Notes: generated by a model from the sequence alone, not told the origin. DNA of 64,000 bases from an uncultured Leptospira sp. (GCA_964502925.1 CAZCYH010000008.1:4185-68184), one strand, 5' to 3'. Counted from the first letter of the stretch, positions 2,413-41,705 are shown. Program-made: numbers and translations.

Positions 2413-3216
2413 TTGATTATTGTATGTAGCACATTTCTATTCGCATATCGCCGCCTTTTTTATCGATATTTCCCGATTGCCGTTTTTATTGCGCTTTCCC
2501 TTGCGCCTGCCTCATCTCAGGATGAGCGGAAAATCGAACTTACCGCGCAGGAAATGATTGCACGCGCCGATCGGGTGCTCGATTATCCGCAGGGCATCAT
2601 CCGGGGGCGGCTCATGCACATCATGCCAACGGGCAAGACCTATAAGGTCGATATCACCGGATATATCGATAAATCCGATTATCTTTTTTCTTTCAGCACT
2701 GCGGATCGCGGAGAACAGCTAAAAGTGCTTTTCAACTTCGGCGGTGAAGAAATCTGGGTCTATAATATGCTGTCCACGAAGCTTTTCCATAAAACGGGAA
2801 TCGATAAGTACGAGCCAGTTGTCGCGACGAATTTTTCATTCATCGATTTTTCAAACGCGGATTTGCAGAGCAACTATACCGCAAAAATAGCAGGCACCGC
2901 GGTAATAAAGGAACAGGAAACCTACCGCCTCTCGCTGACCCCGATTTTTCGAGGCGGGGCGTACGGCAATCTGACGGTGTATGTATCGAAGGGTACGTAT
3001 TTCCCGCTGCGAATTGATTATCACGATATTGACGGCGTGATTTTCAAAACTCTTTCAATTGTCGAGGTTGCAAAGGTAGGCTCAAGAAATTTTCCTGTGC
3101 GCTACGATATGCTCGATATCCGTAAAGGCACGCTGACCATGCTCACTTTTCACGGATTTGAGGAAAATATAAAATTCGACAAAAAAATATTTTTTCATCA
3201 GACGCTGGGGAAATAG
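2413..3216 (+). CDS. LolA-like outer-membrane lipoprotein-sorting family protein (putative); start codon uncertain
   Basis: The track ORF 2194-3216 overlaps the end of the upstream gene, so a later start is needed. A TTG at 2413 precedes a signal-peptide-like segment (RRLFYRYFPIAVFIALSLAPASSQ). The mature part has the LolA-like/DUF-type 'sorting protein' look (ARADRVLDYPQG..., beta-rich, about 250 aa). The family assignment is from pattern memory only. Confidence 0.5.
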   Translation: MIIVCSTFLFAYRRLFYRYFPIAVFIALSLAPASSQDERKIELTAQEMIARADRVLDYPQGIIRGRLMHIMPTGKTYKVDITGYIDKSDYLFSFSTADRGEQLKVLFNFGGEEIWVYNMLSTKLFHKTGIDKYEPVVATNFSFIDFSNADLQSNYTAKIAGTAVIKEQETYRLSLTPIFRGGAYGNLTVYVSKGTYFPLRIDYHDIDGVIFKTLSIVEVAKVGSRNFPVRYDMLDIRKGTLTMLTFHGFEENIKFDKKIFFHQTLGK

Positions 3217-3218
3217 CG

Positions 3219-3947
3219 ATGCCGCAGTTTTTTGTTACCGTGCCATCTGGAGAAACGCGTTGCCGCATCGAAGGTCCGGATTTTGACCATCTGATGAAGG
3301 TCCGCCGCGTACGCGCCGGCGATGAAGTAACCCTGAGAAATTCCGATGGATCGCTCCTTCGCGGCAGGGTGATGGAAATATTTGACAGCTCGATGGCCAT
3401 CGAGATACTTGACCGAAAGGAGGCGGATGATCGCGTTTGCGCTTTCACTCTCGGGGTCGGTATTCTTAAAGGATGGAAATTCGATCTTGTCATTCAGAAA
3501 GCGGTTGAAATTGGAGTTACCACGATCGTTCCTTTGGTTACGGAACGTTCCGTGCCCCATATTCAAGGGAAAGAAGATAAAAAACTTGCGCGATGGACTA
3601 AAATTGCGCGGGAAGCTTCGAAGCAGTCTTTTCGTTTGCAGATTCCGGGTATCGCGATGCCGTGCGATTTTCATACGTTTATTGCGAGCGCACGGGCTGG
3701 AGATAAATTCATCGCGCATCCGCATGATGATGCGGCCGAGTTGAAAGCGTTGATGAAAACGACCGACCGCTCCGATAAAATCACACTCGTAATTGGACCG
3801 GAGGGCGGGTTTTCTGAAAAGGAATTGGATGCCGCAGTTAGGGCAGGATTTAAAGCGTTCAGGGTTGGCACGAACTGCATGCGAGCGGAAACCGCGGCGA
3901 TTGTGCTTCCTGCGATCTTCATGTACGAATGGAGTGGATATGTGTAA
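3219..3947 (+). CDS. rsmE: 16S rRNA (uracil1498-N3)-methyltransferase RsmE
   Basis: 242 aa. N-terminal PUA-like segment (MPQFFV...GDEVTLRNSDG), then a SPOUT core with typical RsmE blocks (GILKGWKFDLVIQKAVEIGVTTIVPLVTERSV; LVIGPEGGFSEKE). The end overlaps thiS by 8 nt. Confidence 0.85.
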   Translation: MPQFFVTVPSGETRCRIEGPDFDHLMKVRRVRAGDEVTLRNSDGSLLRGRVMEIFDSSMAIEILDRKEADDRVCAFTLGVGILKGWKFDLVIQKAVEIGVTTIVPLVTERSVPHIQGKEDKKLARWTKIAREASKQSFRLQIPGIAMPCDFHTFIASARAGDKFIAHPHDDAAELKALMKTTDRSDKITLVIGPEGGFSEKELDAAVRAGFKAFRVGTNCMRAETAAIVLPAIFMYEWSGYV

Positions 3948-5216: not shown

Positions 5217-5486
5217 ATGAGCAATGGCCTTGATGAGAGATTATCCCGATTGAGAAGCGAAGTGGCATTCCGACGCGCCTTCTGGTATGATGTCCGCTCG
5301 AAAATTCGCCTGCGAAAAAATGAATTGCTCACAATGGGATTTGAGAAATCTGTGGTTCGTAAGGATCGCGAATATAAGCGATTGCAAAAACAAAGGAAAT
5401 GCCTTTCAAAGGAGATCCGCCACCTTGAACAGAAGATCAACAGGACGATCGCGCGGCAGGAGAAAAAAGACAGCAACAAGGAATAG
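5217..5486 (+). CDS. Hypothetical small basic coiled-coil protein (89 aa)
   Basis: ATG at 5217, 2 nt after the thiE stop, with an open frame to 5486. The product is Lys/Arg/Glu-rich (…KDREYKRLQKQRKCLSKEIRHLEQKINRTIARQEKK…). No clear SD and no recognisable domain. It could be a real small gene or read-through noise. Confidence 0.3.
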   Translation: MSNGLDERLSRLRSEVAFRRAFWYDVRSKIRLRKNELLTMGFEKSVVRKDREYKRLQKQRKCLSKEIRHLEQKINRTIARQEKKDSNKE

Positions 5487-5532
5487 CGCGAAAAGGGATA
5501 CACGCGCCGAAATAATCTATCCGGCATACTGC

Positions 5533-6780
5533 ATGCCCGATGGTTCCGTGATTGAAGAGCCGCGCTATCGTCCCGCGTTTCGTACCGGTCGGTCAATAGT
5601 TCCGGTGGACCAAAACGAGCTTATTCCGCTTCCTTTCGGGAGCGTTCTTTTTTCTCTTCCGGGTCGTTTCCCGATATTTTACAATACGCGGGGCGAAGAA
5701 GTTATTGTCAAAACAGCATCCGGTTCGTCGCAGGAAATTTCCGCAGCCTCGGCGTTTGTAAGTTCCGGATATCTTCGCACCTATTTGCCCGCCTACGTGA
5801 AATCCGATTCCGCGCCGCCGCTTTCGCTGTGGGCTTATGCAGGTCTGGTAATTAAAAATGGCACATTCTGGGTTCCTGCGCTTCGAATTGATGAAGATCC
5901 CCGGTCGGATGCGCAGCTTCATCAAAACGATGACGAACTTCACCGAAACATAAAGGAAATGAAATTTTTCCTTAAGAGAAACAGGCTTGCATCGCAGCTT
6001 GCCCATTGTGCCACCGAATACCGCTGCCTCTGCGCCCGGAATTTTTTTCTGAGCCGTTTTGAAGCGCCCGTGCCGACAAGCCCTGCGTGCAATGCGAGAT
6101 GTATTGGCTGTTTATCGAAGCAGGAGGAAAGCGGGTTTTGCTCATCACAGGAGAGGCTCTCGTTTGCTCCAGCGCCGGAAGAAATTGCTGAGGTGATTCT
6201 CTATCATTTCGAACGTGTCGATGCCGCAGTGGCGAGCTTCGGCCAGGGCTGTGAAGGCGAGCCGCTTTTGCGCGGAAAAGACCTTGCGCGCGCTATTGCA
6301 CTGGTGCGTGAGAAGACGCCGCGTGGGACCATCAACCTGAATACCAATGGTTCCAGGCCAGACGAAGTGAAGCGCCTCATCGATGCGGGACTCGATTCAA
6401 TCCGCATTAGCCTGAACTCGCCCACGGAGGAATATTATACACGCTATTTCCGGCCTCAAGGGTATTCTTATAGCGATGTCATTCGTTCAATTGATATTGC
6501 ACTCGATGCGGGGATTTTCGTGTCGATCAATCTTTTCTTTTTGCCCGGGTTTACGGACATGGAATCGGAAGTGGATTCATTATTTGCGTTTCTAAAAAAG
6601 TTTCCCGTGTCGATGATACAGGCGCGCAATCTCAACATCGATCCCGACCTGTATCTTGATTCCATTGGATTTTGTGAATCAAAACCATTGGGTATCCGTT
6701 CGCATCTGTCGATGCTTTCTGCCGGTTTTCCGAAAATGAAAATTGGATACTACAATCCGCCAAAGGAGAGATTTCAATGA
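5533..6780 (+). CDS. Radical SAM protein with an uncharacterised ~170-aa N-terminal domain
   Basis: CX3CX2C motif CNARCIGC at nt 6088-6111. A typical radical-SAM core follows (GCEGEPLL, TINLNTNGSRPDEVKRLIDAGLDSIRISLNSP). The start is chosen at ATG 5533. The upstream part of the track ORF (from 5287) overlaps the 5217 ORF and reads as low-complexity R/K junk. The stop overlaps the cooC start (ATGA at 6777-6780). Confidence 0.7.
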   Translation: MPDGSVIEEPRYRPAFRTGRSIVPVDQNELIPLPFGSVLFSLPGRFPIFYNTRGEEVIVKTASGSSQEISAASAFVSSGYLRTYLPAYVKSDSAPPLSLWAYAGLVIKNGTFWVPALRIDEDPRSDAQLHQNDDELHRNIKEMKFFLKRNRLASQLAHCATEYRCLCARNFFLSRFEAPVPTSPACNARCIGCLSKQEESGFCSSQERLSFAPAPEEIAEVILYHFERVDAAVASFGQGCEGEPLLRGKDLARAIALVREKTPRGTINLNTNGSRPDEVKRLIDAGLDSIRISLNSPTEEYYTRYFRPQGYSYSDVIRSIDIALDAGIFVSINLFFLPGFTDMESEVDSLFAFLKKFPVSMIQARNLNIDPDLYLDSIGFCESKPLGIRSHLSMLSAGFPKMKIGYYNPPKERFQ

Positions 6781-7550
6781 AAATCGCAATCACGGGCAAA
6801 GGCGGCGTTGGCAAGACAAGCATTGCCGCGGCAATCGCGCTCATTCTGGCAGAACGCGGGCACAGGGTTCTGGCGGTCGATGCCGATCCCGACACGAACC
6901 TTGCCTCAGCGCTCGGCATTCCCTATGCTGAGCATGGCGGGATACGAACCATTGCGCTGGAAAAAGAGCTTATTGAAGAGCGAACAGGTGCACGCGCTTC
7001 TGGTGGGATCTTTAAGCTGAACCCTGAGGTTTCCGATATCGCCGAAAAATTTGCCTTCCGCTATCGAAACGTTGATCTTGTGGTGCTCGGTGCCGTGCGT
7101 ACCGGAGGTGGTGGATGCGCATGCCCCGAAAGCGCGTTTCTGCGTTCTTTAGTGCAGGAACTGGTTTTGAGAAGGGATGAACATCTCGTGCTCGATATGG
7201 AGGCCGGCATTGAGCATCTTGGAAGGGCTACCGCACGGGGCGTGGATGCATGTATCGCGGTTGCGGAACCCGGCGCGCGGTCCATCGCAACAGTCCGGCG
7301 CATCGCGCAGATGGCAGAACAGATCGGCATCATGCGCACATACGTTATTATCAATGCTATCAGAAACGCCGGGGACGCGGGATTTTTAAAAGCGGGACTT
7401 TCCGATTTTGAGATAGTAGGGGAAATACCGTATCATGAAGCGATACGCGACAATGACAGAGATGGCCGGGCGGTGATCGATGAGTTGCCCGATGAAATTC
7501 GATCATATTTTGACGCGCTTGTCGAACGACTTTTAGTAAAATTTTCTTGA
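6777..7550 (+). CDS. cooC: CooC/AcsF-family Ni-insertion ATPase (CODH/ACS maturation), copy 1
   Basis: 257 aa. Deviant Walker A ITGKGGVGKTS, then DADPDTNL, and a C-x-C metal motif (GGGCACPES). Translationally coupled to the upstream radical SAM gene. Confidence 0.9.
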   Translation: MKIAITGKGGVGKTSIAAAIALILAERGHRVLAVDADPDTNLASALGIPYAEHGGIRTIALEKELIEERTGARASGGIFKLNPEVSDIAEKFAFRYRNVDLVVLGAVRTGGGGCACPESAFLRSLVQELVLRRDEHLVLDMEAGIEHLGRATARGVDACIAVAEPGARSIATVRRIAQMAEQIGIMRTYVIINAIRNAGDAGFLKAGLSDFEIVGEIPYHEAIRDNDRDGRAVIDELPDEIRSYFDALVERLLVKFS

Positions 7551-7689
7551 CCGATAATCCCTTTTCTTTAGCGTGAAAACCCCGGACGCGCCCGCAGCCT
7601 CAGTCCGACCGCACGAGTTCGGTGAGCAAAACTACATGCGTGTAATCACTATAATGCTGTCCGATGAATTATCCGGCAAGGAGATCGAT

Positions 7690-8742
7690 ATGAAAGAAAG
7701 ATTTTTAGCTACTGCCATTGGAAGCTTTCCCCACGATGATGCAAAAAAAGCGGTGGATATTATCCTTGAAACAATGCCCGAAGCGCCGGTATGGCCGCAG
7801 CTTCCGAAAATCGGACTCACCGAGCAGATGGAGATTCAGTATTCGGAAGGCATGCCGAGCGCGATTATCGATTCCGAAAAGGGACGAATGTATTTCGATA
7901 CCTCCGGCGATTACTCTGAAGAGCTTGCTGCTTTTTATGAGTCGTATATGAATGCGGTCGAAGGTGACGGCGATCTCTCGGCTTTTGTGATATCGCCGAA
8001 ATATTCAAGGGGTATTTATGAACTTAATTCCCGGCTTTCGCAGGATGGAAAAAAATATTCCTATGTGAAGGTGCATACCACCGGACCCTGTTCATTTTCG
8101 CTTACCGTGGTTGATGAACAGAAGCGAGCGATTTACTATAATGAAGAATTTCGCGATGTGGTGGTGAAAGCGCTTTCTATGAAGTGCCGATGGCAAATTC
8201 GAACATTCGCCCCTCTGGCGGAAAAAATCATCTGCTTCATTGATGAGCCCATCCTTTCGGCATTCGGTTCATCGACCTATATTTCTGTCAAACGCGACGA
8301 TGTGGTATCGCTCATCCGTGAAATGGTAGATGCCATTCACGCCGAAGGGGGAATTGCCGGTGTGCACTGCTGCGGCAATACCGAGTGGCCAATTCTCATC
8401 GAAGCCGGCGTGGATATCCTGAATTTAGACGCCTATCTGTATGGCGACACAATTGCGCTGTATCCCGAAGCGGTGAACAACTTTATTGCGCGCGGCGGAA
8501 CGATTGCCTGGGGAATTGTTCCAACCTCGGTGAGCATTCGAAATGAAAGCGCAGCTTCTCTGGAAAAGCGATTTGATGAGCTCGTGGCGCATCTTTCAAA
8601 GAAAAGCGGTATCGCTTCCGATGTGCTCTATGAACGCGCGATAATCACACCGTCATGCGGGACGGGCTCTATGAGCGTTGATGATGCCGAGCGGGTCTTT
8701 CACACGTTACATGAGCTTTCGAACGCGCTAAAAAAGCGTTAA
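7690..8742 (+). CDS. MetE-C-terminal-like (UroD/MetE superfamily, 'core-MetE'-like) zinc methyltransferase
   Basis: 350 aa from ATG 7690 (AAGGAG RBS 7 nt upstream; the track ORF starts earlier at 7573). Blocks resemble the cobalamin-independent methionine synthase catalytic barrel: CFIDEPIL (cf. IQIDEPA), GVHCCGN (His-x-Cys Zn ligands), and TPSCGTGS (distal Cys ligand). Confidence 0.7.
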   Translation: MKERFLATAIGSFPHDDAKKAVDIILETMPEAPVWPQLPKIGLTEQMEIQYSEGMPSAIIDSEKGRMYFDTSGDYSEELAAFYESYMNAVEGDGDLSAFVISPKYSRGIYELNSRLSQDGKKYSYVKVHTTGPCSFSLTVVDEQKRAIYYNEEFRDVVVKALSMKCRWQIRTFAPLAEKIICFIDEPILSAFGSSTYISVKRDDVVSLIREMVDAIHAEGGIAGVHCCGNTEWPILIEAGVDILNLDAYLYGDTIALYPEAVNNFIARGGTIAWGIVPTSVSIRNESAASLEKRFDELVAHLSKKSGIASDVLYERAIITPSCGTGSMSVDDAERVFHTLHELSNALKKR

Positions 8743-8753
8743 GGCGTAAGATC

Positions 8754-9503
8754 ATGTCCTATACCATCGCGATAACCGGCAAGGGCGGTACGGGCAAGAC
8801 GACCATCGCTGCGCTCATCGTTGTGGCAATGACACGGGCGGGCAAACGTCCGGTGCTGGCAGTGGATGCCGATCCCAATGCCTGTCTCGATGTGGCGCTG
8901 GGTGTTGAAGCGAAAAACACGGTGGGGCAATTGCGCGAGGATGCGCGAATACTTGCATCGGAGCATCCCGATATTTCAAAGCGCGAGCTTTTAGAGTTGA
9001 AGATTTCCGAAAGCCTAGTGGAAGGTGAGGATTTTGATCTCATTGCGATGGGGCGACCGGAAGGGCCGGGATGCTATTGCTACGCGAACAATGTGCTGCG
9101 CGAGGTACTGAAAGAAGTTTCTGATAATTATCCATATGTAGTTATCGACAATGAAGCGGGGCTTGAAAATCTCTCGCGCAGAATTGTGCGCCGCGTGGAC
9201 GCGCTTTTAGTGGTGGGGGAGCCGTCGCGAAACGGTATCGCGACGCTGCATCGGATACAGGCGCTTGCCGCAGAAATGAATATTGAATATGGGAAGCTCA
9301 TTGCGGTGATAAACCGGGTATATGAGGTAAAAAAATCCTATGATGACGTGAAGAAGGAAATGGGAGCGGACGGAATTGTTCTTCTGCCTCATGATGATGA
9401 AATACGAATGTTGAACGAAGCGGGAAGAAGTTTTTTTTCGCTACCGGAAAAAAATGCGGTATATCAAAAGGTGCGCGATGAGATCGTGGCGCCAGTAAAA
9501 TAA
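8754..9503 (+). CDS. cooC: CooC/AcsF-family Ni-insertion ATPase, copy 2
   Basis: 249 aa. ITGKGGTGKTT Walker A, DADPNACLD, and a C-x-C motif (GPGCYCYAN). It is paralogous to copy 1. Two paralogs are the usual pattern where one serves CODH and one serves ACS. Confidence 0.9.
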   Translation: MSYTIAITGKGGTGKTTIAALIVVAMTRAGKRPVLAVDADPNACLDVALGVEAKNTVGQLREDARILASEHPDISKRELLELKISESLVEGEDFDLIAMGRPEGPGCYCYANNVLREVLKEVSDNYPYVVIDNEAGLENLSRRIVRRVDALLVVGEPSRNGIATLHRIQALAAEMNIEYGKLIAVINRVYEVKKSYDDVKKEMGADGIVLLPHDDEIRMLNEAGRSFFSLPEKNAVYQKVRDEIVAPVK

Positions 9504-9522: not shown

Positions 9523-11472
9523 ATGGAAAAGGAAAAGAAAAGAGCACAAGACCGCGCAGTCGATTCTGCATCAATAGCCATTATCGAGAAAGCGGAGAAG
9601 GATAATGTTCGCGTGAGCTTTTTCCGCATGGATGAGCAGGGAGCCCAGTGTGGCTTCGGGACAAGCGGCGTGTGCTGCCGCATCTGCCACATGGGGCCGT
9701 GCCGCATCAGCGCGAAAGCAAAATTCGGCGTCTGCGGTGCCGATGCGGATACCATCGTCGCGCGCAATTTTCTTCGCGAGGTGGCGGCAGGATGCGCCGC
9801 ACATTCAGATCACGCGCGGCATCTGGTACTGCTTCTGAAAAAGGTCGCGCAGGGGAAAGCGGGCAATTATGCGCTCAAAGATCGCGATGCGCTGCATCGC
9901 GTGGCGAAAAAATACGGCGTAGCCATTGAGCAGAGAAATGACGCCGAAATTGCCTCTGAACTTGCCGATGTCCTTCTTGGGGAATTCACCGCGCAGGAGG
10001 AACATTTAAAAACGCTGAAACTTGCGCCGGAAAAACGCCAGAGGTTGTGGGAAAAACTGGAAGTTGAGCCGCATGGAGTGGACCGGATGATTGTGGAATC
10101 GCTTCACCGCACGCACATGGGCGTCGATCACGACTACGCGCATATTCTGATGCACGCGTTTCGCGCGTCACTATCCGACGGGTGGGGCGGCTCGCGCATC
10201 GCGAGCCAGGTTTCCGACATCCTCTTCGGTACGCCAGCGCCCGTGCGCTCGATGGCGAATTTAGGGGTGCTTGGAGAGCGTACAGTGAACGTGGTGGTGC
10301 ACGGGCATGAGCCCGCGCTTTCCGAAATGCTTGCGGCTGCTTCAAAAGATCCCGAAATCATTGAGGCGGCAAAAAAGGTGGGGGCGGAAGGCATCACGCT
10401 TGCGGGAATCTGCTGTACCGCCAATGAAATTCTCATGCGCCACGGGATTCCCGTCGCGGGAAATTTTCTTCAACAGGAGCTGGCAGTCGTCACAGGTGTG
10501 GTTGAGGCGCTCATCATCGATGTGCAATGCTGTATGCCGGGACTGGCTGAGGTGGCGGCATCATACCATACCGAAATCATTTCTACCAGCGATATTGCGC
10601 ACACAGTGGGAGCAGTTTCCGTCCAGTTCACCGCAGAAGAAGCCTATGATGGCGCAAAACGCATTCTTCTACGCGCTATAGAAAATTTTGTGCGCAGAGA
10701 TTCATCGAAAGTGTTCATACCGAAAGAAGCGAAACCCCTTGTCGCGGGCTTCAGCGTGGAAGCCATCCGCTACATGCTCGGCGGACGATTCCGTGCTTCG
10801 TATCGGCCACTCAACGACGCCATCATGCAGGGGAGAATTCGGGGCGTGGCGGGCATTGTGGGATGCAATAATCCCAAGCAGAAACTGGATGAGTACATCG
10901 ATACACTCACCGAGGAACTTCTTAAGCGAAATGTGCTGGTGCTCAAAACCGGATGCGCGGCAATCGCCTCGGCGAAGGCGGGCTATCTCACGCCGGAGAC
11001 TGCGCTGCGGCAGGCAGGGGCGGGGCTGCGCGAAGTCTGCGAAGCAATCGGCATGCCGCCGGTTTTGCATATGGGAAGCTGTGTGGACAATTCGCGCATT
11101 TTAGAGGCTGCCACTGAAATCGTATTTGAAGGCGGTTTGGGCGATGATCTGTCGATGATTCCCGCGGTTGGAGTGGCGCCGGAATGGATGAGTGAGAAGG
11201 CCATTGCCATCGCCATGTATTTCGTGGCATCGGGAATTGATGTGATACTCGGCCATCCCTTTTATATTTCCGGCTCAAAGAACGTGATGCGCTTTTTGAA
11301 TGAAGAATCGAAAAATATTTTTGGTGCGTCATTTCATGTGTACGATGATCCATGTGAGGCGGCGGATGCGATTATGGAAATCATTGAGCGGAAGCGCGAC
11401 GCGCTCGGCATCAACCAGCGCACGGAACGGAAACTTTTCGATATGAAGGACAGGAGGCAGCTCAGTGTCTAA
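9523..11472 (+). CDS. cooS: Ni-dependent carbon monoxide dehydrogenase catalytic subunit (CooS/AcsA)
   Basis: 649 aa. N-terminal D/B-cluster cysteine motifs (QCGFGTSGVCCRICHMGPCRI...FGVCGAD). Hybrid-cluster-fold blocks run throughout (VHGHEPALSEM, TLAGICCTANE, HMGSCVDNSR). Confidence 0.95.
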   Translation: MEKEKKRAQDRAVDSASIAIIEKAEKDNVRVSFFRMDEQGAQCGFGTSGVCCRICHMGPCRISAKAKFGVCGADADTIVARNFLREVAAGCAAHSDHARHLVLLLKKVAQGKAGNYALKDRDALHRVAKKYGVAIEQRNDAEIASELADVLLGEFTAQEEHLKTLKLAPEKRQRLWEKLEVEPHGVDRMIVESLHRTHMGVDHDYAHILMHAFRASLSDGWGGSRIASQVSDILFGTPAPVRSMANLGVLGERTVNVVVHGHEPALSEMLAAASKDPEIIEAAKKVGAEGITLAGICCTANEILMRHGIPVAGNFLQQELAVVTGVVEALIIDVQCCMPGLAEVAASYHTEIISTSDIAHTVGAVSVQFTAEEAYDGAKRILLRAIENFVRRDSSKVFIPKEAKPLVAGFSVEAIRYMLGGRFRASYRPLNDAIMQGRIRGVAGIVGCNNPKQKLDEYIDTLTEELLKRNVLVLKTGCAAIASAKAGYLTPETALRQAGAGLREVCEAIGMPPVLHMGSCVDNSRILEAATEIVFEGGLGDDLSMIPAVGVAPEWMSEKAIAIAMYFVASGIDVILGHPFYISGSKNVMRFLNEESKNIFGASFHVYDDPCEAADAIMEIIERKRDALGINQRTERKLFDMKDRRQLSV

Positions 11473-14400
11473 GATCATCAGCAGTGCGGCCATTGATGGT
11501 GCCATCGCGTGGGTTGCGCGCGCGGAAAAGAAACTGGATGAAGTTATCCTGACTAAGGGAGAAGATGCTGCGGTTGCTTTCCCTGATACAGCCTACTATC
11601 TTCCCATTATTTATTCGTTTACCGGGAAAAAAGTTGCGACGCTTGCCCACTGCCGAGAGGTGTTGCGGGAGGCGAAAGAACTCTTGCCGCAAAGGCCTTC
11701 AGAACATGTGTGGCTGCCGTATCTGGGAAACGCGCTTGATGCGGGCGTGGCAGCGCTTTTTGCCTGCGAAATAATCGAAGCGTGCAAATATCTCATTGGA
11801 CCAAATCCGGTTGAAGGCATCTGGCTCGGTGCCGCGAACGATATCATCATGCGGGAGCGGGGAGTGGAATTCGTGGACGGGACCGCGCCTGGATTTGCAG
11901 CGGTAACCGGCGCAGCACCCTCGAATGACATTGCGGTGAAGATTGCGCGCGAACTTCAGGAAAAAAATCTCTATGTGTTTATGGCCGGCTCCACAAATGG
12001 AAGACAATTTGCAGAGCAGCTTGCCGAAGAAGGGGTGCAGCTCGGATGGGAGACGCGGCTTGTTCCCTATGGCAGGGATGTGTCGGCGCTGGTGTATGCG
12101 CTCGGTTTTGCAAACCGTGCAGCGCTTTCGTTTGGAGGAGTCAGGCCCGGAGATTATGCGGGCAATCTGCGCTATAATAAAAACCGCATCATGGCCTTTG
12201 TCCTTGCCTTTGATGAAGTCGATGCCGATAAATACGCTCTTGCTGCAGGTGCCATCAACTACGGCTTTCCGGTGATTGCCGATACTGCCATCCCGCAGAT
12301 TCTTCCTACTGGCGTGTGCACCTACGAGCACGTGGTGTCATCGGTTCCCTATGAGAAAATAGTGGAGCGCGCGCTTGAAGTGCGCGGCTGCAAGGTGAAA
12401 ATCACCAGAGTGCCCATTCCCGTTCCATACGGCCCCGCTTTCGAAGGCGAGCGGATACGCAAACAGGACACGCATGCGGAATTCGGCGGGAATATCACCA
12501 CCGCATTTGAATTCGTCACCATGGTGGGTATGGACGAAATCGAAGATGGCGAAATTGAAATCATCGGCAAAGACATCGACGAAATAGAAGCTGGGAGCGC
12601 ACTGCCGCTCGGCATATGGGTTGAGGTGGCGGGAAGAAAGATGCAGCCGGATTTTGAATCAATCTTAGAGCGGCAAATCCATCATCTCATCAACGGCGCA
12701 GAAGGCATCTGGCACATGGGGCAGCGCGATATCGTATGGACGCGCGTCTCGAAAAGCGGATTTGCCAGAGGCCTGCGGTTGCGGCATTATGGCGAAATTC
12801 TTCATGCGCAGTTTCTTTCCAATTATCCTGCCATTGTCGATAAAGTCAAAGTGACGCTCATCACCGATGCAGAAGAAGCGGAGCGGCGCGTTGCAATTGC
12901 CCGGAAGGTATATCGGGAGCGCAATCAGCGCCTTGCTTCAATGACCGATGAATCCGTCGATACATTTTATTCGTGTCTTCTCTGCCAGAGCTTTGCGCCG
13001 AACCACGTATGCGTCATCACCCCTGAACGGCTGGGCCTCTGCGGTGCGTACAACTGGCTCGACGGAAAAGCGGCATACGAAATCGACGAAACCGGGCCGA
13101 ATCAGCCGGTGAAGAAAGGCACGGTCATCGATCCGGGCCGGGGAATTTTCACCGGCGTCGATGAGTACGTCTATTCCAATTCGCATAAAAAAGTCGAAAG
13201 TTTCAGCATGTATTCCATCATGCACAATCCCATGACCAGCTGCGGCTGTTTTGAAGTGATTCTTGCCTACGTGCCCGAGTGCAATGGTGTGATGGCAGTC
13301 AACCGCGAGTACACCGGCGATACGCCCGTTGGAATGACCTTCTCCACGCTTGCGGGCAATGTGGGCGGGGGCATGCAGACGCCGGGCTTCATGGGCTGCG
13401 GCAAGGTGTATCTCACATCGAAAAAATTTGTTTATGCAGAGGGAGGGCATAAACGCCTGGTGTGGATGACCACTGATCTGAAGCAGATGGTGGGCGATGA
13501 CATGAAAAAGCTTTTCGCAGAATTGGGGCTTGATGGCCTTTTTGAGAAAATTGCTGATGAAACCATATCGGCGAACCCCGCAGAAATACGACAATTCATG
13601 GAAAAAAATGAGCATCCCGCGCTCGAAATGGACGATATGGCTCTCTATGCCGAAATGGAGAGCACGCCCCGGGAGACAATTGTCCCTGAGAAAGAAGAAG
13701 CGGGTGAGATAAAAAAAGCGCAAGAGGTGCATGATGAAACGGTGCATCCAGTAAGCGAAACGCGCACGATGCCGCACTCTGTGGATGTGGAGGCACTGAA
13801 GAGAGAACTCTTTGCCGAGCTTCGTGATGAAATGAAGAAAGCCATCACGAAGGAAGTGGTATCGGAGATCATCAGCGTTTTAGAGGAAAAGTTTCTTGGC
13901 GCAAAACGGCCTGCTTCACCGGGTAATGTTTCCGTGGAAGAAAAAAGAGATCAGGTGCCTTTAAGCGAATCCGGGCATCCGCATCCGAAACCGTCTGAAA
14001 GAATTTCCGCGATTCAATCCTTTCCGATTCCAAAAGAATCCTTCAGCGGCGCGGTGCACCGTGTGAAAATTGGTGCCACGAAAGCGGAAGGCGGCACGCG
14101 GGGACGAACGTATGAAATCGGCGGCGCGAATACCATGCCCTTCCATCACTGGGAAGGCATTATGCCGAACCGTCCGCTTATGGCGATGGAAGTCTTCGAC
14201 CGGGTTGGAGAGAAATATCCACAGGCACTCAAAGACGTCTGGGGTGAATTATTATTAGATCCGGTGCGCATGGCAAAGGCGTGCGTGGAAAAATATGGTG
14301 CGGATCTCATAAGCGTGCGTCTTGATGGCACGCATCCCGAGCGCGGAAATTATTCTCCCGAAGATTCGCTTAAGCTGGTGAAATCGGTTCTTGCGGCAGT

Positions 14401-14980
14401 GGATGTGCCGCTTGTCATTACGGGGCACAATCACTATGAAAAGATGAATGCGGTGATGAAGGAAATCGCCGCGGGGTGTGCTGGTGAAAATCTGCTTTTG
14501 AACTGGGCAGAGCAGGACAATTATCGTGTGATAGCAGGCGCCGCGATAGCGTACGGGCATACGGTGGTGGCGCAAAGCCCCATTGATGTGAATATTTCCA
14601 AGCAGCTCAACATTTTGCTTACGGGAATGGACGTGCCTATTAATCGCATCGTCGTCGATCCGCTCACCGGCGCGATGGGTTACGGTATCGAATACACCTA
14701 TTCCGTAATGGAGCGCATTCGCCTCACGGGCCTCGGCGGCGACGCAATGCTGCTTTCGCCCATGATTGTGTCCCCTGGACAGGAATGCGCCCGCATCAAG
14801 GAACTGCGCGCCGAAGAGATAGAGTTTCCTTCCTGGGGCGATCTGAAAAAGCGCGCGGCGCTGTGGGAACTTTCCACCGCCACGGCATTGCTCTATGCCG
14901 GGGCTGATATCCTCATCATGTATCATCCTGAAGCCGCGGGTGCTTTGAAAAAATCAATCATGCAGCTTATGGAGAAGTAA
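11465..14980 (+). CDS. acsB: Acetyl-CoA synthase (AcsB/CdhC, A-cluster subunit) fused to a C-terminal CFeSP small-subunit-like (AcsD/CdhD-like) TIM-barrel domain
   Basis: 1171 aa. GTG start overlaps the cooS stop. The AcsB part (about aa 1-720) is bacterial-type with a long N-terminal domain. It carries the [4Fe4S] ligand block CLLCQSFAPNHVCVITPERLGLCGA and the proximal-Ni Cys-Gly-Cys motif MTSCGCFE. An Asp/Glu/Lys-rich linker of about 130 aa follows. The last ~310 aa (…LISVRLDGTHPERGNY…VPLVITGHNHYEKMNAVMKEIAAG…VVDPLTGAMGYGIEYTYSVMERIR…) resemble the CdhD/AcsD corrinoid-protein TIM barrel. Confidence 0.9.
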   Translation: MSKIISSAAIDGAIAWVARAEKKLDEVILTKGEDAAVAFPDTAYYLPIIYSFTGKKVATLAHCREVLREAKELLPQRPSEHVWLPYLGNALDAGVAALFACEIIEACKYLIGPNPVEGIWLGAANDIIMRERGVEFVDGTAPGFAAVTGAAPSNDIAVKIARELQEKNLYVFMAGSTNGRQFAEQLAEEGVQLGWETRLVPYGRDVSALVYALGFANRAALSFGGVRPGDYAGNLRYNKNRIMAFVLAFDEVDADKYALAAGAINYGFPVIADTAIPQILPTGVCTYEHVVSSVPYEKIVERALEVRGCKVKITRVPIPVPYGPAFEGERIRKQDTHAEFGGNITTAFEFVTMVGMDEIEDGEIEIIGKDIDEIEAGSALPLGIWVEVAGRKMQPDFESILERQIHHLINGAEGIWHMGQRDIVWTRVSKSGFARGLRLRHYGEILHAQFLSNYPAIVDKVKVTLITDAEEAERRVAIARKVYRERNQRLASMTDESVDTFYSCLLCQSFAPNHVCVITPERLGLCGAYNWLDGKAAYEIDETGPNQPVKKGTVIDPGRGIFTGVDEYVYSNSHKKVESFSMYSIMHNPMTSCGCFEVILAYVPECNGVMAVNREYTGDTPVGMTFSTLAGNVGGGMQTPGFMGCGKVYLTSKKFVYAEGGHKRLVWMTTDLKQMVGDDMKKLFAELGLDGLFEKIADETISANPAEIRQFMEKNEHPALEMDDMALYAEMESTPRETIVPEKEEAGEIKKAQEVHDETVHPVSETRTMPHSVDVEALKRELFAELRDEMKKAITKEVVSEIISVLEEKFLGAKRPASPGNVSVEEKRDQVPLSESGHPHPKPSERISAIQSFPIPKESFSGAVHRVKIGATKAEGGTRGRTYEIGGANTMPFHHWEGIMPNRPLMAMEVFDRVGEKYPQALKDVWGELLLDPVRMAKACVEKYGADLISVRLDGTHPERGNYSPEDSLKLVKSVLAAVDVPLVITGHNHYEKMNAVMKEIAAGCAGENLLLNWAEQDNYRVIAGAAIAYGHTVVAQSPIDVNISKQLNILLTGMDVPINRIVVDPLTGAMGYGIEYTYSVMERIRLTGLGGDAMLLSPMIVSPGQECARIKELRAEEIEFPSWGDLKKRAALWELSTATALLYAGADILIMYHPEAAGALKKSIMQLMEK

Positions 14981-15076
14981 GGGAAATAATTATCATTTAT
15001 AGTTATACTACAAATGAGCCTGAAGGTAATTTCATGTTGTGATTGATAATTTTAGAAAAGCAGGTAGCACAGCGCA

Positions 15077-15991
15077 ATGCTTCACGCATATAAAATAGCA
15101 AACGGTGCGATAGTCCCAGCGAACGAGGAATCGGCGCCGATACTGGTGTATATCAACCCCACTATTGAAGAAAAGGATCTTCTGGTGGGAAATTACAATA
15201 TCGATTCGCACACCCTGCAGTCCGCGCTCGACCCCGATGAGCTTTCCCGGCTGGAGTTTGAGCCCGATCATGCCGCCGTCATTCTCAAACGCCCGCAGAA
15301 TTATTCTGCTGCCGATGAATTCCTTTTTAAAGTTTCATCAATCGGCATTTTCTGGTACCGGGAGCGCGTCATCATTCTCCTCATGGAAGATATACAGCTT
15401 TTCGACGGCAAAATTTTCTCGAAAGTGAATTCAATCGGCGATCTGGTGCTGAAAATTATATTGCGCATTATCTATCATTATATCGATCACCTGAAAGTTA
15501 TCAACATGATTTCCGATTCGCTCGAGCAGAAAATCAATACCTCCATGCGCAATAAATATCTCATCAATCTTTTCACGCTCGAAAAAAGTTTGGTCTATTA
15601 TCTCAATGCCATCAATTCGAATGCGACAGTGATAGAGCGCATAAAAAACAATCGCGCGCGCCTTGCGCTTGAAAATGAGCAGATTGAAATGCTGGACGAT
15701 ATCATCATCGAAAATACGCAGTGCCAGAAACAGGCGGAAATCTATTCGAACATTCTTGCCGGCCTCATGGACGCGCGCGTCTCAATCGTCAGCAACAATC
15801 TCAATATCCTCATGAAAACCTTAAACCTCATCACCATCGCCATCATGGTGCCTACCTTCGTGGTGAGTGCGTTTTCCATGAACGTGGCGATTCCCATGCA
15901 GCACTATCCGCATGCCTTCTGGATCATCATGGCGCTTGCGCTTATATCTGTGCTGACGTTTATGTTCTTCTGGCGCCTCAAAAAGTGGTGA
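15077..15991 (+). CDS. CorA-family divalent-metal (Mg/Co/Ni) transporter with a non-canonical SMN motif in place of GMN
   Basis: 304 aa. A soluble N-terminal CorA-like domain, then two C-terminal TM helices separated by FSMNVAIP at the position of the canonical YGMNF. Basic C-terminus (WRLKKW). Confidence 0.7.
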   Translation: MLHAYKIANGAIVPANEESAPILVYINPTIEEKDLLVGNYNIDSHTLQSALDPDELSRLEFEPDHAAVILKRPQNYSAADEFLFKVSSIGIFWYRERVIILLMEDIQLFDGKIFSKVNSIGDLVLKIILRIIYHYIDHLKVINMISDSLEQKINTSMRNKYLINLFTLEKSLVYYLNAINSNATVIERIKNNRARLALENEQIEMLDDIIIENTQCQKQAEIYSNILAGLMDARVSIVSNNLNILMKTLNLITIAIMVPTFVVSAFSMNVAIPMQHYPHAFWIIMALALISVLTFMFFWRLKKW

Positions 15992-16010
15992 GCGTATTTT
16001 TTTGTACGCG

Positions 16011-17102
16011 TCACAGGCTTTTTTGCGGGTGCCGTAAAATGTGCAGTGCGGTCGCTTTGAATGAAGCGGTTACCGTGCTTTTTTCTTGTAATCCGAGCTC
16101 GGAAAGTGAGTGCGGCGTGATATATGCAATGAGCTTAAATCCGCAATCGAGCGAAACGCGCACATGCGTGCCTGCATGAGTGATGCTGCATACCTTTGCC
16201 TCGAATGAATTGCGCATGCTGCTAGATGCATTTTTATCTTTTGAAATAACGATATGCTCGGGGCGTATTCCGAGTGTTACCATTTTGCCTTTATGCGCTG
16301 CGCCTGAAACTTCAATTGCTCTGCCGGAAACCTCGACAGTAAAACCGCCATTAAAAACATCAACGACGGTTCCGGAAAGAATTGTTTCAACACCCATGAA
16401 CGATGCAATGAATTCATCGGCGGGATTGCTGATGATGTCAGCCGGAAAGCCTTCTTGAATCACGCGGCCATTTCTCAGCACCACAATCCTGTCGGCCAGA
16501 CGAAGCGTTTCGTCGCGATCGTGGCTGATAAATATGACACCGCATTGGACATGGCGCAGCATTTTTTCGAAATCATCAAGCATGGAATCGCGGGCCAATG
16601 TATCGAGCGCTGAAAACGGTTCGTCCATGAGCAGGAGTTTTGGCTTTAGTATCAGGGAACGCGCGAGGGATACACGGCGCGCTTCTCCTGCAGAAAGAGT
16701 GTGTGAGCGGCGATGAAGCAGATGCGCAATGCCGAACATATCGGCGAACTCATGTACTTTTCGTTTGATTTCACTGGCAGGCAATTTTCGAATTTTCAAA
16801 CCGAGTGCGATGTTCTCACCTGCCGTTGTGTTCAAAAGCAAAGGTTCCTGAAAGAGCATGGTGATGGATTTTCGACGATCGTACAGAGCGCGGATATCAT
16901 GAATTGGAATTTCGTCGAATATGAGATCAAGCTCGCGTACTTTAATAAGGCCAGCAAGTGCCAGAAGCAGTGTAGTTTTTCCCGCGCCATTGTGCCCGAT
17001 AATTGCGATGCTTTCGCCGACGTGAAGGCGGATATTATTGACCGAAAGTGTGAATTGGCCAATTTGCGCCGTTATTTTTTGAATATCGAGCAGCGATTTC
17101 AT
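16011..17102 (-). CDS. tupC: ABC transporter ATP-binding subunit with C-terminal TOBE/Mop domain (tungstate/molybdate type, TupC/ModC-like)
   Basis: 363 aa. Walker A GHNGAGKTT, signature LSAGEARRVSLARS, Walker B LLLMDEP. A C-terminal ~110-aa TOBE-like beta domain is present. Confidence 0.8.
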   Translation of the reverse strand: MKSLLDIQKITAQIGQFTLSVNNIRLHVGESIAIIGHNGAGKTTLLLALAGLIKVRELDLIFDEIPIHDIRALYDRRKSITMLFQEPLLLNTTAGENIALGLKIRKLPASEIKRKVHEFADMFGIAHLLHRRSHTLSAGEARRVSLARSLILKPKLLLMDEPFSALDTLARDSMLDDFEKMLRHVQCGVIFISHDRDETLRLADRIVVLRNGRVIQEGFPADIISNPADEFIASFMGVETILSGTVVDVFNGGFTVEVSGRAIEVSGAAHKGKMVTLGIRPEHIVISKDKNASSSMRNSFEAKVCSITHAGTHVRVSLDCGFKLIAYITPHSLSELGLQEKSTVTASFKATALHILRHPQKSL

Positions 17103-19653: not shown

Positions 19654-20826
19654 TCACGCATGCTGCGATTCAATAAGCCTTCTGAAATATCTGCAGTTTT
19701 CAACCAGGTCATTGCTGTGCCGGAAAAGTCCGCCGCCCACTAAATAGATGACATCATCTCCGTAAAGCTGTAGCATTTCAGGAATACGTTCCATCGTCAT
19801 GCCGCCGCCAGGGGTGGGAAAAATTGGCCGCATGCTTCCAAGCTCTTCGGTGCATGCACGCACAATTGCCGCACAGTCCTTGCGGCTGAAAGAAAATCGT
19901 CCCCCGAAGTTCGGGTAGATGGTGGCATCGGCGCCTGCGATGCGGCACAGAGTTCCGAACAGGCAGGAGGGCGAGATGCCGTTTTGGTTGATTGCAAATG
20001 ATCCCACAAATGCAGGATGCGCAATCAGGGGAAGCTCGATCTTTTCATGGGCGGCTAGCATGCGCATGGCATCGAAACCGACAAGTCCAGGTGCAATTAA
20101 AAGTGCGCCTGCGCCATATTCCTTCGCAAACATTGCGCGCTCAAGTAGTTCGTCGCACGGTGCGGTGATATTCGGCGCGTAGATGGCATTGCCCCCTGTT
20201 TTTGCATTCGCGTTATAAATCGATTCGGCGCAGCGGGAGACGCGCTCTTTGAAGCAGGCAAAGGGCTGATTGGTAAGCCCGTGATCGTCCTTGATGATAT
20301 CGATGCCGCCAAGCGCGAATTGGTAGGCAAGCTCAGCCAATCCTTTCGATGAAAGCCCCATGGGTTTGAGTGCGGTGGCAAGCAGCTGCCCTGATTGGCG
20401 ATGCAACATATTTCGCAAGCCTGAAATTCCGAATCGCGGACCGGTGAACATTTTCAAAAGCGCCGGTGGAAGCTCTACGCGTTCAAGCCGTATGCCGGGT
20501 TTGAGGCTGATATTCCCGAAAAGTACGTTTAGAAGTTGTGTGAACTCGCACGCGGTAATATCGACGGAAAAGCTTATGAGCGCATAATACGCACCATCTA
20601 TTTGTTCAAAGCGTTCGATGCGTCCAAATACTGAATTGCGGATAAAACCGTTCGGAATGAGATCTTCTGGAAATTCAATCGTCTGCTTAATGCAGATATC
20701 CGCAGCGTGTTCGCGCGCTTCGTGCTCGTTGCCGGCAAGGCGATAGAGTGCAAAAAAGCGTTCCGTGGAATCACTGGAAACAGTGTGTGCGGCAATGAAC
20801 TCGTGAAAGAACTCTTTGCTGTTCAC
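19654..20826 (-). CDS. RubisCO large-subunit-like protein (form IV RLP-type; KDDH instead of KDDE)
   Basis: 390 aa. RubisCO large-chain blocks: LKPMGLSSKG (cf. KPKLGLS), GGIDIIKDDH (cf. GGLDFTKDDE; the carbamylated Lys and Asp are kept, but Glu is replaced by His), LIAHPAF (cf. HIHRAMHAV; Arg295 replaced), and LVGGGLFRHSND (cf. GGGTLGHPWG). The start overlaps the upstream transketolase-C stop by 4 nt. Confidence 0.85.
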   Translation of the reverse strand: MNSKEFFHEFIAAHTVSSDSTERFFALYRLAGNEHEAREHAADICIKQTIEFPEDLIPNGFIRNSVFGRIERFEQIDGAYYALISFSVDITACEFTQLLNVLFGNISLKPGIRLERVELPPALLKMFTGPRFGISGLRNMLHRQSGQLLATALKPMGLSSKGLAELAYQFALGGIDIIKDDHGLTNQPFACFKERVSRCAESIYNANAKTGGNAIYAPNITAPCDELLERAMFAKEYGAGALLIAPGLVGFDAMRMLAAHEKIELPLIAHPAFVGSFAINQNGISPSCLFGTLCRIAGADATIYPNFGGRFSFSRKDCAAIVRACTEELGSMRPIFPTPGGGMTMERIPEMLQLYGDDVIYLVGGGLFRHSNDLVENCRYFRRLIESQHA

Positions 20827-21830
20827 AGCGCCTCGGCGTTTACGCTTCCCGATATTTCAGAAAGGCGGATTTCAGCAAGCTCGTCTTCAGTGATGCGAAA
20901 AGATGCGCCAAGTATTGCTTCGATGTTGCGTACAAGTGCCATTGCGTCGAGGCCGTATTCTTTTTTCAAATAGGGCAGGCTTGCGCCGTGGGCGAAGGTA
21001 TCACGCAGTCCGATGCGCACGAGCTTTTTGCCGATGCCATGCTCGGCCATCATTTCCGCAACGGCGCTTCCAAGTCCGCCGATGGTGGTATGATTTTCCA
21101 TGGTGATGACGCCACAGCGCGCCTTATCGATTGCGTCTAATACGAGTGGATCATTGAATGGTTTCAGCGTGGCGATGTGCAGATGGGAAATTGAAACGCC
21201 GCGAAGTTTGAGTGCCTCTGTTGCACGCAGCGCCTCTTCCGTGCAGATGCCCGAAGAAAAGAGTGCAATGTCGCTGCCGCGCGAGATGACGCGCGCTTTA
21301 CCGAAGATGAGGGGATTGTCGTCACCGAAAAGCTTTGGTATTTCACCGCGCAGCATTCGGACATACACTGGTCCTTGAATGGATGCGGCTACATCCAGAA
21401 TCGTTTTGACATCGGTAGCGTCACCAGTTTCAAGCACAGTCATGTTGGGAAGAGAACGCATTACTGCAATGTCTTCAATTGCCTGATGCGTCGCTCCGCC
21501 CGGGGTGGTAATGCCAGGAAGAAAGCCGAACATTTTGACGGGAAGATTCGGATACGCGACCGACATTGCAATCTGATCAAACGCGCGGCGATAGATAAAC
21601 ACCGCGAAGGTATGTACCAGCGGCAAAAATCCCTCGCGCGCCAATCCCCCCGCAAATGAAAGCATATTCTGCTCGGCAATGCCCATGGAAAGAAAGCGAT
21701 CGGGATAGGTCTCGCGAAAAAGGTCGATTTCAGTGGAACTCGTGAGATCGGCCGAAAGTACCAGCGCTTCGGGATGATCTTTCGCCCATTTAACTAAATT
21801 TTTCGCATGTACTTTGCTTGCAATTTCCAT
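20823..21830 (-). CDS. Transketolase, C-terminal subunit (split transketolase)
   Basis: 335 aa. Pyrimidine-binding/C-terminal domain blocks (GIAEQNMLSFAGGLAREGFLPLVHTFAVF; PGITTPGGATHQAIEDIAVMRSLPNMTVL). Confidence 0.85.
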   Translation of the reverse strand: MEIASKVHAKNLVKWAKDHPEALVLSADLTSSTEIDLFRETYPDRFLSMGIAEQNMLSFAGGLAREGFLPLVHTFAVFIYRRAFDQIAMSVAYPNLPVKMFGFLPGITTPGGATHQAIEDIAVMRSLPNMTVLETGDATDVKTILDVAASIQGPVYVRMLRGEIPKLFGDDNPLIFGKARVISRGSDIALFSSGICTEEALRATEALKLRGVSISHLHIATLKPFNDPLVLDAIDKARCGVITMENHTTIGGLGSAVAEMMAEHGIGKKLVRIGLRDTFAHGASLPYLKKEYGLDAMALVRNIEAILGASFRITEDELAEIRLSEISGSVNAEAL

Positions 21831-21835
21831 GATAA

Positions 21836-41517: not shown

Positions 41518-41705
41518 GTCGGAAGCTCCATGTGGTAATATGCATCCCGGCAGTAGCAATAATCGCAGTATGACGAGTCCGATTGCACACCTGGAAATGA
41601 ATTGCGTTCACACCGTTATAATAATTTTCTGCAATCTGCCGCGTTGATAACACAGTGGGTGGCGCATAATATATGTCAACAATAAATGTTGGTTTGTTCA
41701 GCAAC

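Follow-up and report, generated by a model that had tools for sequence, protein, structure and literature searches.

Methyl transfer from the corrinoid iron-sulfur protein (CFeSP) to acetyl-CoA synthase (ACS) is the most transient step in the Wood-Ljungdahl pathway and the one least understood; its structural capture needed cryo-electron microscopy (cryo-EM) classification of loosely bound complexes. How this step might proceed when ACS and a subunit of CFeSP share one polypeptide is the question raised by a gene found in a 64-kb stretch of DNA from an uncultured Leptospira sp. (GCA_964502925.1 CAZCYH010000008.1:4185-68184), from now on referred to as the window, whose open reading frames (ORFs) of at least 150 amino acids (aa) were annotated with Pfam and NCBIfam. 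This gene, acsB::acsD, joins acetyl-CoA synthase (AcsB) to the small subunit of CFeSP (AcsD). An initial interpretation of the locus, the sequence-only reading, had treated the fusion as unusual and had suggested that it could mark a streamlined or mechanistically different methyl-transfer complex. The explanation that we consider best, at a probability of roughly 75%, is ordinary CFeSP-to-ACS methyl transfer in which the docking subunit is covalently tethered.

The fusion gene is a single uninterrupted ORF at 11465-14980 (+, stop codon included), as had been stated before, and encodes a protein of 1171 aa with four Pfam domains and GTG as its start codon. An AGGAGG Shine-Dalgarno sequence (ribosome-binding site) is located at 11452-11457 (+), 7 nucleotides (nt) 5' of the GTG. 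The start of the gene overlaps the end of acsA, whose TAA stop codon lies at 11470-11472, by 8 nt, and the same overlap is found in the related loci L001-L004; acsA and the fusion gene are therefore probably translationally coupled. The 1171-aa product is a complete bacterial AcsB, a long linker and a true AcsD on one polypeptide.

The AcsB module spans residues 10-725 (11492-13639, +) and contains three Pfam domains, namely CODH_A_N (PF18537, corresponding to the A1 domain) at residues 21-110, CdhC (PF03598) at 318-471 and ACS_CODH_B_C (PF19436) at 483-725. The NCBIfam equivalog model NF040764 scores 1031 bits (cutoff 800) over residues 10-725, covering profile positions 1-704 of 705. Within the ligand region of the Ni-Ni-[4Fe-4S] A-cluster (12974-13249, +), the cysteine motifs are FYSCLLCQSFAPNHVCVITPERLGLCG at residues 501-527 and SCGCFE at residues 592-597. 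Based on motif position and established knowledge of the Moorella ACS, we take C504, C507, C516 and C526 to be the ligands of the [4Fe-4S] cluster and C593-G594-C595 to form the Ni site. All seven residues are invariant among 60 homologues. The earlier assignment of a complete bacterial-type AcsB with these motifs is thus upheld, and by family assignment the module is predicted to function as an acetyl-CoA synthase. The ratio of non-synonymous to synonymous substitution rates (dN/dS), calculated here and below by the Nei-Gojobori method for the window against its 93%-identical relative L005, is 0.05 for the AcsB module.

The C-terminal TIM-barrel domain comprises residues 853-1171 (319 aa; 14021-14977, +). 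Pfam CdhD (PF03599) matches residues 871-1152 (E = 1.5e-38), and the curated NCBIfam delta-subunit subfamily model NF003376 scores 373 bits (cutoff 280) over residues 853-1169, covering profile positions 3-312 of 313. Residues 858-1169 align end-to-end with the solved AcsD structures of Moorella (4DJD_D, E = 3.5e-94, residues 8-318 of 323), Carboxydothermus (2H9A_B, E = 2.5e-72) and Clostridium autoethanogenum (9FZY_E, E = 9.3e-57). The score against the NF040759 'WLP_AcsD' exception model stays below its cutoff (243.8 vs 430), so the domain belongs to a different subfamily from the Moorella-type reference. An AlphaFold2 model of the full-length fusion, built on a 60-sequence alignment, shows alternating strands and helices over residues 860-1170 with a predicted local distance difference test (pLDDT) score of 85-95, and a dN/dS of 0.095 indicates purifying selection. 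The resemblance to CdhD/AcsD that had been noticed from the sequence therefore holds at the level of a curated cutoff, and the barrel is not an unrelated one. The cutoffs of both the AcsB and the delta-subunit model are exceeded on one chain, and the single-polypeptide fusion is genuine. AcsD is, as the sequence-only reading had stated for known systems, a separate protein in all structurally characterised systems (PDB 4DJD, 2H9A, 9FZY), whereas here it is the C-terminal domain of the AcsB polypeptide.

Whether adjacent acsB and acsD genes could have been wrongly joined on the contig by an assembly or frameshift error can be judged from homologues collected from NCBI, JGI, ENA and Logan assemblies. 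The AcsB-linker-AcsD architecture is common to over 120 protein clusters defined at 90% identity. The best 120 homologues are all 1085-1247 aa long, in the size range above 1000 aa that had been proposed as a search target, are 67-93% identical to the window protein and contain PF19436, PF03598 and PF03599, with PF18537 additionally present in 119. When the reading frame was walked at every locus, 72 of the 85 independent sources, which come from more than 15 phyla, showed AcsB and AcsD in one uninterrupted frame; the other 13 comprise six truly unfused systems, four with a frame break between AcsB and the AcsD barrel (L053, L067, L071, L079) and three cut by contig ends. Within the window's own lineage three assemblies agree on the fusion: the window, L005 and L085, the last at 88% identity and from a different sample, with a called gene of 1171 aa that translates to protein P0004. 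The junction moreover holds a conserved helix under selection, described below. Direct support for an artefact was not found in these data; the family is not free of sequencing errors or real splits, as the four frame breaks just mentioned and two more inside AcsB (L028, L076) demonstrate. The probability of an artefact is negligible in our judgement, this explanation being effectively refuted, and no stop or frameshift splits the ORF in the contig sequence.

Nor is the fusion rare in sequence databases, although the sequence-only reading had called it unusual. A one-genome-per-species scan with the linker helix and AcsD as query identified at least 589 species genomes with a relative; among the best 80, the two parts are fused in 67. 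The names of these 80 genomes, all of them metagenome-assembled genomes (MAGs), include Spirochaetota, Acidobacteriota/Aminicenantes, Syntrophales, Victivallales, Bacteroidota, Clostridia, Planctomycetota, Verrucomicrobiota/Kiritimatiellia, Fibrobacterota/Chitinivibrionales, Ignavibacteriae, Latescibacterota, Hydrogenedentota, Myxococcota, Synergistaceae, Sumerlaeota and Zhuqueibacterota. The architecture has been kept while spreading over more than 15 phyla.

AcsB and AcsD are connected by a linker of 127 aa (residues 726-852, nt 13640-14020; 105-197 aa across the fused family) with 26 acidic (D+E) and 18 basic (K+R) residues. Its size, position and charge agree with the linker of about 130 aa described earlier; it is not a plain spacer, however, as it contains a conserved helix. 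Three segments can be distinguished. Segment 1 (residues 726-775; 13640-13789, +) is variable, acidic, of low complexity and predicted to be disordered, with an identity of 0.10-0.20 and about 25% gaps in the family alignment, a family length of 31-115 aa, a pLDDT below 50 and a dN/dS of 0.24. It is followed by an amphipathic helix (residues 776-812; 13790-13900, +) with the sequence EALKRELFAELRDEMKKAITKEVVSEIISVLEEKFLG, a block of 37 residues that is nearly gap-free in the family alignment. Its hydrophobic stripe consists of positions 775, 778, 782, 786, 790, 794, 798-799, 802-803, 806 and 810-811, each at least 90% hydrophobic, and K779, V799, I802, I803, L806 and F810 are near-invariant. 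The dN/dS of the helix is 0.078. Segment 2 (residues 813-852; 13901-14020, +) is again variable, Pro/Ser-rich and predicted to be disordered, with a family length of 27-64 aa and a pLDDT below 50; its dN/dS of 1.37 is a noisy value based on 39 codons only. The AlphaFold2 model likewise places disorder at residues 731-775, a helix at 776-811 and disorder at 812-843. The helix is constrained like the catalytic domains while the flanking segments evolve much faster.

The origin of this arrangement bears on whether it matters mechanistically. In a rough, midpoint-rooted neighbour-joining tree of AcsD domains, all fused sequences from these loci fall into one clade, whose sister group (L078, L080-L084) carries the unfused order acsA-acsB-cooC-acsD-acsC. 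AcsB of the sister clade ends with HPALSMPPLF, exactly where the linker of the window protein begins (HPALEMDDM), and its AcsD starts at the barrel; the whole linker, including the helix, is therefore specific to the fused clade. It is plausible that the sister-clade order represents the ancestral state and that loss or relocation of cooC gave rise to the fusion. Taken by itself, such a history would be satisfied by a simple deletion or relocation, and the fusion could be a neutral or stoichiometry-fixing result of losing the intervening cooC, with an enzyme that acts like unfused CO dehydrogenase (CODH)/ACS and CFeSP. Interacting partners often fuse, and the additional AcsD fusions described below suggest that this subunit does so readily. 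The linker is no random read-through, however: a 37-aa helix that the unfused relatives do not have, with a dN/dS of 0.078 and a hydrophobic stripe of at least 90% conservation, has been retained with the rest of the architecture across more than 15 phyla. We therefore regard a fusion without mechanistic consequence as distinctly unlikely.

A representative library clustered at 50% identity contained further fusions. Protein P0143 (1225 aa, 42% identity) represents a second AcsB-AcsD lineage in a different clade, probably of independent origin; its linker is Ala/Pro-rich and contains only a loosely similar amphipathic segment. Other arrangements are MTHFR-(TPR)-AcsD (P0188, P0179) and AcsD-CODH with a Prismane domain (P0164). 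The barrel is likewise joined to Wood-Ljungdahl partners in these proteins, but partners and domain order differ, and no description of any of the four was found in the literature searched. A further arrangement in this set, which also takes in P0140-P0148, is AcsD extended at its C-terminus by about 210 unassigned aa.

Whether a tethered AcsD still works with AcsC, the CFeSP large subunit, can be addressed through gene order. The window was compared with 84 related loci using tblastn with reference proteins and ORF clustering, the latter applied to these 84 loci together with the window's first 26 kb. The usual order in the family is a PF02574 gene (not always present), a gene for a protein with a probable MetE fold, two cooC genes, acsA, acsB::acsD, acsC, RACo and DUF3786. 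Of 67 evaluable loci, 63 carry acsC no more than 3 kb downstream of the fusion, with a median gap of 49 nt; RACo follows acsC in most relatives, usually with DUF3786 behind it. AcsC of L006, the nearest relative with acsC, is canonical and of full length (E = 1.3e-101 to 2H9A_A). No separate acsD was found in four Pfam-annotated neighbourhoods, nor did the ORF clustering bring up another recurring AcsD-like family. Because acsC adjoins and no separate acsD recurs, the fused domain is the CFeSP small subunit of these systems. Judged by this synteny, the AcsD domain would pair with AcsC, and the fusion points to a tethered, otherwise canonical CFeSP rather than an AcsC-free complex. In L001 (Spirochaetota MAG GCA_053578275.1), acsC 3' of the fusion is split over several frames (14867-16209), with pieces of 220 aa and 59 aa called as genes; the gene has either decayed to a pseudogene or been broken by indel errors, the assembly being high in GC.

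We hypothesize that the AcsD barrel pairs with a separately encoded AcsC, carrying the cobamide and a [4Fe-4S] cluster, to give a normal CFeSP. The tether would keep this methyl carrier close to the A-cluster at high local concentration and in 1:1 stoichiometry. Its disordered segments may provide the slack needed for CFeSP to swing off for re-methylation and for reductive reactivation by RACo, and may also allow ACS to close over the CO tunnel for CO delivery from AcsA. For the amphipathic helix at the centre of the linker, a role in docking or oligomerisation is probable. Such a tether model fits the dimensions of the linker, in which roughly 90 residues of disorder plus a helix of some 5 nm join AcsD to the C-terminus of the A3 domain. 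Both the proximity effect and the role of the helix are inferred.

The choice of fusion partner is consistent with the known docking geometry. In the cryo-EM structures of the C. autoethanogenum CODH/ACS-CFeSP complex (PDB 9FZY), three contacts hold the methyl-transfer state: the small subunit makes two, with A1 and with A3, and the third joins A3 to the large subunit's [4Fe-4S] domain (bioRxiv 10.1101/2024.08.05.606187). In 9FZY, the small subunit is the main anchor of CFeSP on ACS, matching the subunit that is fused in the window, and the fusion provides independent evolutionary support for its function as docking element. More generally, the bacterial CODH/ACS and CFeSP systems of Moorella thermoacetica, Carboxydothermus hydrogenoformans and C. 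autoethanogenum (4DJD, 2H9A/2YCL, 9FZY) share with the fused family the same domains and A-cluster ligands, the adjacent acsA and the cooC genes, and canonical AcsC and RACo are encoded in the window's relatives. The fused family differs from Moorella-type systems in carrying AcsD on the C-terminus of ACS via the helix-containing linker of 105-197 aa, and the window in addition lacks an adjacent acsC and RACo.

Tethering has also been proposed for archaeal acetyl-CoA decarbonylase/synthase (ACDS, CdhABCDE), to which the fusion offers a bacterial parallel. According to a 2026 preprint (PMC13370988), the ACDS model has the CdhD barrel touching ACS A3, disordered terminal regions hold ACS and CFeSP modules together, and assembly is mediated by a helix that precedes the CdhD barrel on its N-terminal side. 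The conserved helix of the fused linker is likewise located upstream of the AcsD barrel with disorder on both sides. However, tethering in ACDS is non-covalent, and archaeal CdhC lacks A1, whereas the ACS of the window is of the bacterial AcsB type with A1. Homology of the linker to the N-terminal region of archaeal CdhD was considered and rejected: archaeal delta-subunit models cover the barrel only (profile positions 102-425 of 442), and no linker homology to the CdhD N-terminus was detected. Functional equivalence of the two helices would be conjecture.

Several observations weigh against the tethered but otherwise canonical system. Among the ORFs annotated in the 64-kb window there is no acsC, RACo, acsE or cobamide-binding protein, and no further PF03599, PF04060 or B12-binding match. 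L005 and L085 also have no acsC adjoining the fusion. Two homologues of the L006 AcsC, P0394 and P0398 (85% and 67% identical to it), were checked as candidates for the missing acsC and rejected, each being encoded directly 3' of a truncated fusion-type gene, and neither is tied to the window's lineage. The best 80 species genomes are all MAGs, in which the fusion is known from genes alone, and the monophyly of the fused clade comes from a neighbour-joining tree without support values. The full-length AlphaFold2 model has a mean pLDDT of 66.8 and a predicted template modelling score of 0.39 and provides no confident placement of AcsD relative to ACS or of the helix. Finally, the argument that tethering would bring a kinetic benefit is a general one.

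That no acsC adjoins the fusion, which the sequence-only reading had taken as part of what makes it unusual, is true of the window, but it is not a trait of the fusion, being limited to the sub-lineage of the window, L005 and L085 while 63 of 67 relatives have the gene; the four evaluable loci without a nearby acsC are the window, L005, L002 and L030. Because dN/dS of the AcsD domain is low in the window's lineage, it can be argued that the partner AcsC is encoded elsewhere in the genome.

The source of the methyl groups is a further question, to which a neighbouring gene draws attention. Located at 7690-8742 (+), it encodes a 350-aa protein with a probable MetE fold that starts at M40 of the longer listed ORF 7573-8742, the position at which its homologues begin. 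The protein is mostly labelled hypothetical in source databases and is modelled well (pLDDT 88). It has no Pfam match at E <= 10, PF01717 included, and scores 24.8 bits to NF002119 (cutoff 258), while a profile of its family yielded only chance-level matches to PDB sequences and no solved MetE. Since these sequence searches gave no MetE match, the MetE assignment is one of fold. Residues H226, C227, C228 and C323 are invariant and occur in the order expected of a MetE-type H-x-C...C zinc site, and the protein is a putative Zn-dependent methylcorrinoid/thiol methyltransferase. The core methionine synthases MesA-MesD (PMC7857596; core-MetE of D. mccartyi, PMC7005905) have a similar conserved H-x-C...C pattern, and mesB has been reported to be linked to CFeSP genes, as is the MetE-fold gene. 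Membership in MesA-D or PF01717 was considered and rejected by sequence: lacking a match to PF01717 or solved MetE, the protein is not a demonstrable member. It may represent a further family akin to MesB/MesC.

Of 56 clusters, 52 contain the MetE-fold gene, placed between the two cooC genes. Stand-alone PF02574 homocysteine-S-methyltransferase-like genes of about 295 aa occur at either cluster end in 21 of 39 loci with wide flanks. Unlike Moorella-type systems, fused clusters thus embed a MetE-fold gene, and no acsE-like (PF00809) family recurs within 10 kb of the clusters in the ORF clustering; PF00809 is likewise missing from the window and the four Pfam-annotated neighbourhoods. Examples of the PF02574 genes, which are not found in the window, are located at 17450-18337 in L003 and at 2878-3765 and 3996-4883 in L004.

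These neighbours would allow a different reading, namely that the fusion works in a folate-independent, or at least acsE-independent, methyl branch in which methyl groups are exchanged with thiols or thioethers via the MetE-fold protein and, in many relatives, the PF02574 protein. Such a branch could run from methylated sulfur compounds to acetyl-CoA, or from acetyl-CoA cleavage to methionine or another thiol acceptor. The constancy of the MetE-fold gene, the frequency of PF02574 and the absence of a recurring acsE-like family from the neighbourhoods covered are consistent with this proposal. It also has a published precedent, as MesB and MesC are predicted to draw methyl groups from CFeSP and mesB clusters with acsCD (Price et al. 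2021, PMC7857596). However, the acsE negative covers cluster neighbourhoods only and acsE could sit elsewhere, and the substrate assignment of the MetE-fold protein is putative given that sequence-level matches to PF01717 or solved MetE are lacking. A 559-aa gene 5' of the cluster in six Syntrophales/Deltaproteobacteria loci (L010, L030, L035, L041, L050, L054), at about 1-2.8 kb of each locus, was recognised by eye as resembling formate-tetrahydrofolate ligase (Fhs), arguing for a folate branch there. Further, the proposal concerns neighbours and would hold without any fusion. The neighbours of the unfused sister clade match those of the fused clusters, so the MetE-fold context is a trait of the wider cluster and not of the fusion. 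On balance, we consider an acsE-independent branch unlikely as an account of the fusion.

A more far-reaching version would combine both features. Fused AcsB-AcsD, the linker helix and the MetE-fold protein, with PF02574 in many cases, would then form a horizontally mobile module that has so far escaped recognition and occurs in uncultured anaerobes belonging to more than 15 phyla, in which the tethered CFeSP exchanges methyl groups with thiols or thioethers instead of, or besides, receiving them from methyl-tetrahydrofolate via AcsE. The helix might recruit the methyltransferase or build a higher-order, ACDS-like complex. This is a highly tentative suggestion that we think is probably wrong. 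With a MetE-fold gene constantly nearby and no acsE in the cluster, the source or sink of the methyl groups is nevertheless a testable question.

With ordinary methyl transfer by a tethered CFeSP as the preferred explanation, the chemistry is most likely the known one. The fusion is best seen as a useful natural tethered complex and an annotation pitfall and not as an enzyme of a new type. Each domain belongs to a textbook family; the novelty lies in their covalent arrangement, in the conserved linker helix, in the wide occurrence among uncultured anaerobes and in the context of the cluster. The literature searched yielded no account of an AcsB-AcsD fusion, though an earlier one may exist, and a July 2026 phylogenetic survey of ACS architectures (PMC13370988) does not mention it in the passages covered. 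A single-chain ACS-AcsD represents a ready-made natural tethered construct for structural and kinetic study. Databases and standard pipelines label the fused proteins merely as 'beta' or 'alpha/beta' subunit, so automated pathway reconstruction could score acsD as missing. Aminicenantes, Syntrophales, Victivallales and Spirochaetota are among the fusion carriers at risk of such miscalls, which would understate Wood-Ljungdahl capacity in sediments, peat and digesters.

The gene order surrounding the fusion in the window is thiE, radical SAM, cooC, MetE-fold gene, cooC, acsA, acsB::acsD and corA. The acsA gene (9523-11472, +), directly 5' of the fusion, encodes the catalytic subunit of Ni-CODH (649 aa; PF03063, E = 1.6e-161; TIGR01702, 629 bits, cutoff 478), the partner that supplies CO to AcsB. 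Upstream of it, a cooC/acsF-type P-loop ATPase with CbiA/AAA_31/NifH-like Pfam matches (8754-9503, +) is, judging from these matches, a probable Ni-insertion chaperone. A second cooC-type P-loop ATPase (6777-7550, +) has CbiA/ArsA/ParA matches. The cooC family has 94 members in 54 clustered loci and is thus typically present in two copies per cluster.

The radical SAM protein (5287-6780, +) overlaps this second cooC gene by 4 nt and matches PF04055 at residues 263-426, with no Pfam match in its N-terminal 260 aa. Homologues in the same position are found only in the Spirochaetota-like relatives L005, L006 and L085, and membership of the gene in the system is uncertain. In L085, it is called shorter (415 aa) with an 89-aa ORF before it. 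On the 3' side, a CorA-family divalent-cation transporter (15077-15991, +; PF01544, E = 4.4e-34) occupies the usual position of acsC. It directly follows the fusion in L005 and L085 as well and is thus stable in the window's sub-lineage; a role in Ni/Co supply would be speculation. A scan for promoters and terminators between 3.9 and 16.2 kb gave counts not above those of shuffled controls.

Elsewhere in the window, the region 19654-22771 (-) encodes a 390-aa RuBisCO large-chain-like protein that matches the catalytic domain only. Next to it in this region is a transketolase-like pair split over two genes, one for the N-terminal half and one for the pyrimidine/C-terminal half. A 709-aa protein of the ADP-forming acetyl-CoA synthetase type, with CoA_binding, Succ_CoA_lig and ATP-grasp_5 domains, is encoded at 39430-41559 (-), some 25 kb away from the CODH/ACS genes, and could link acetyl-CoA to acetate with formation of ATP.

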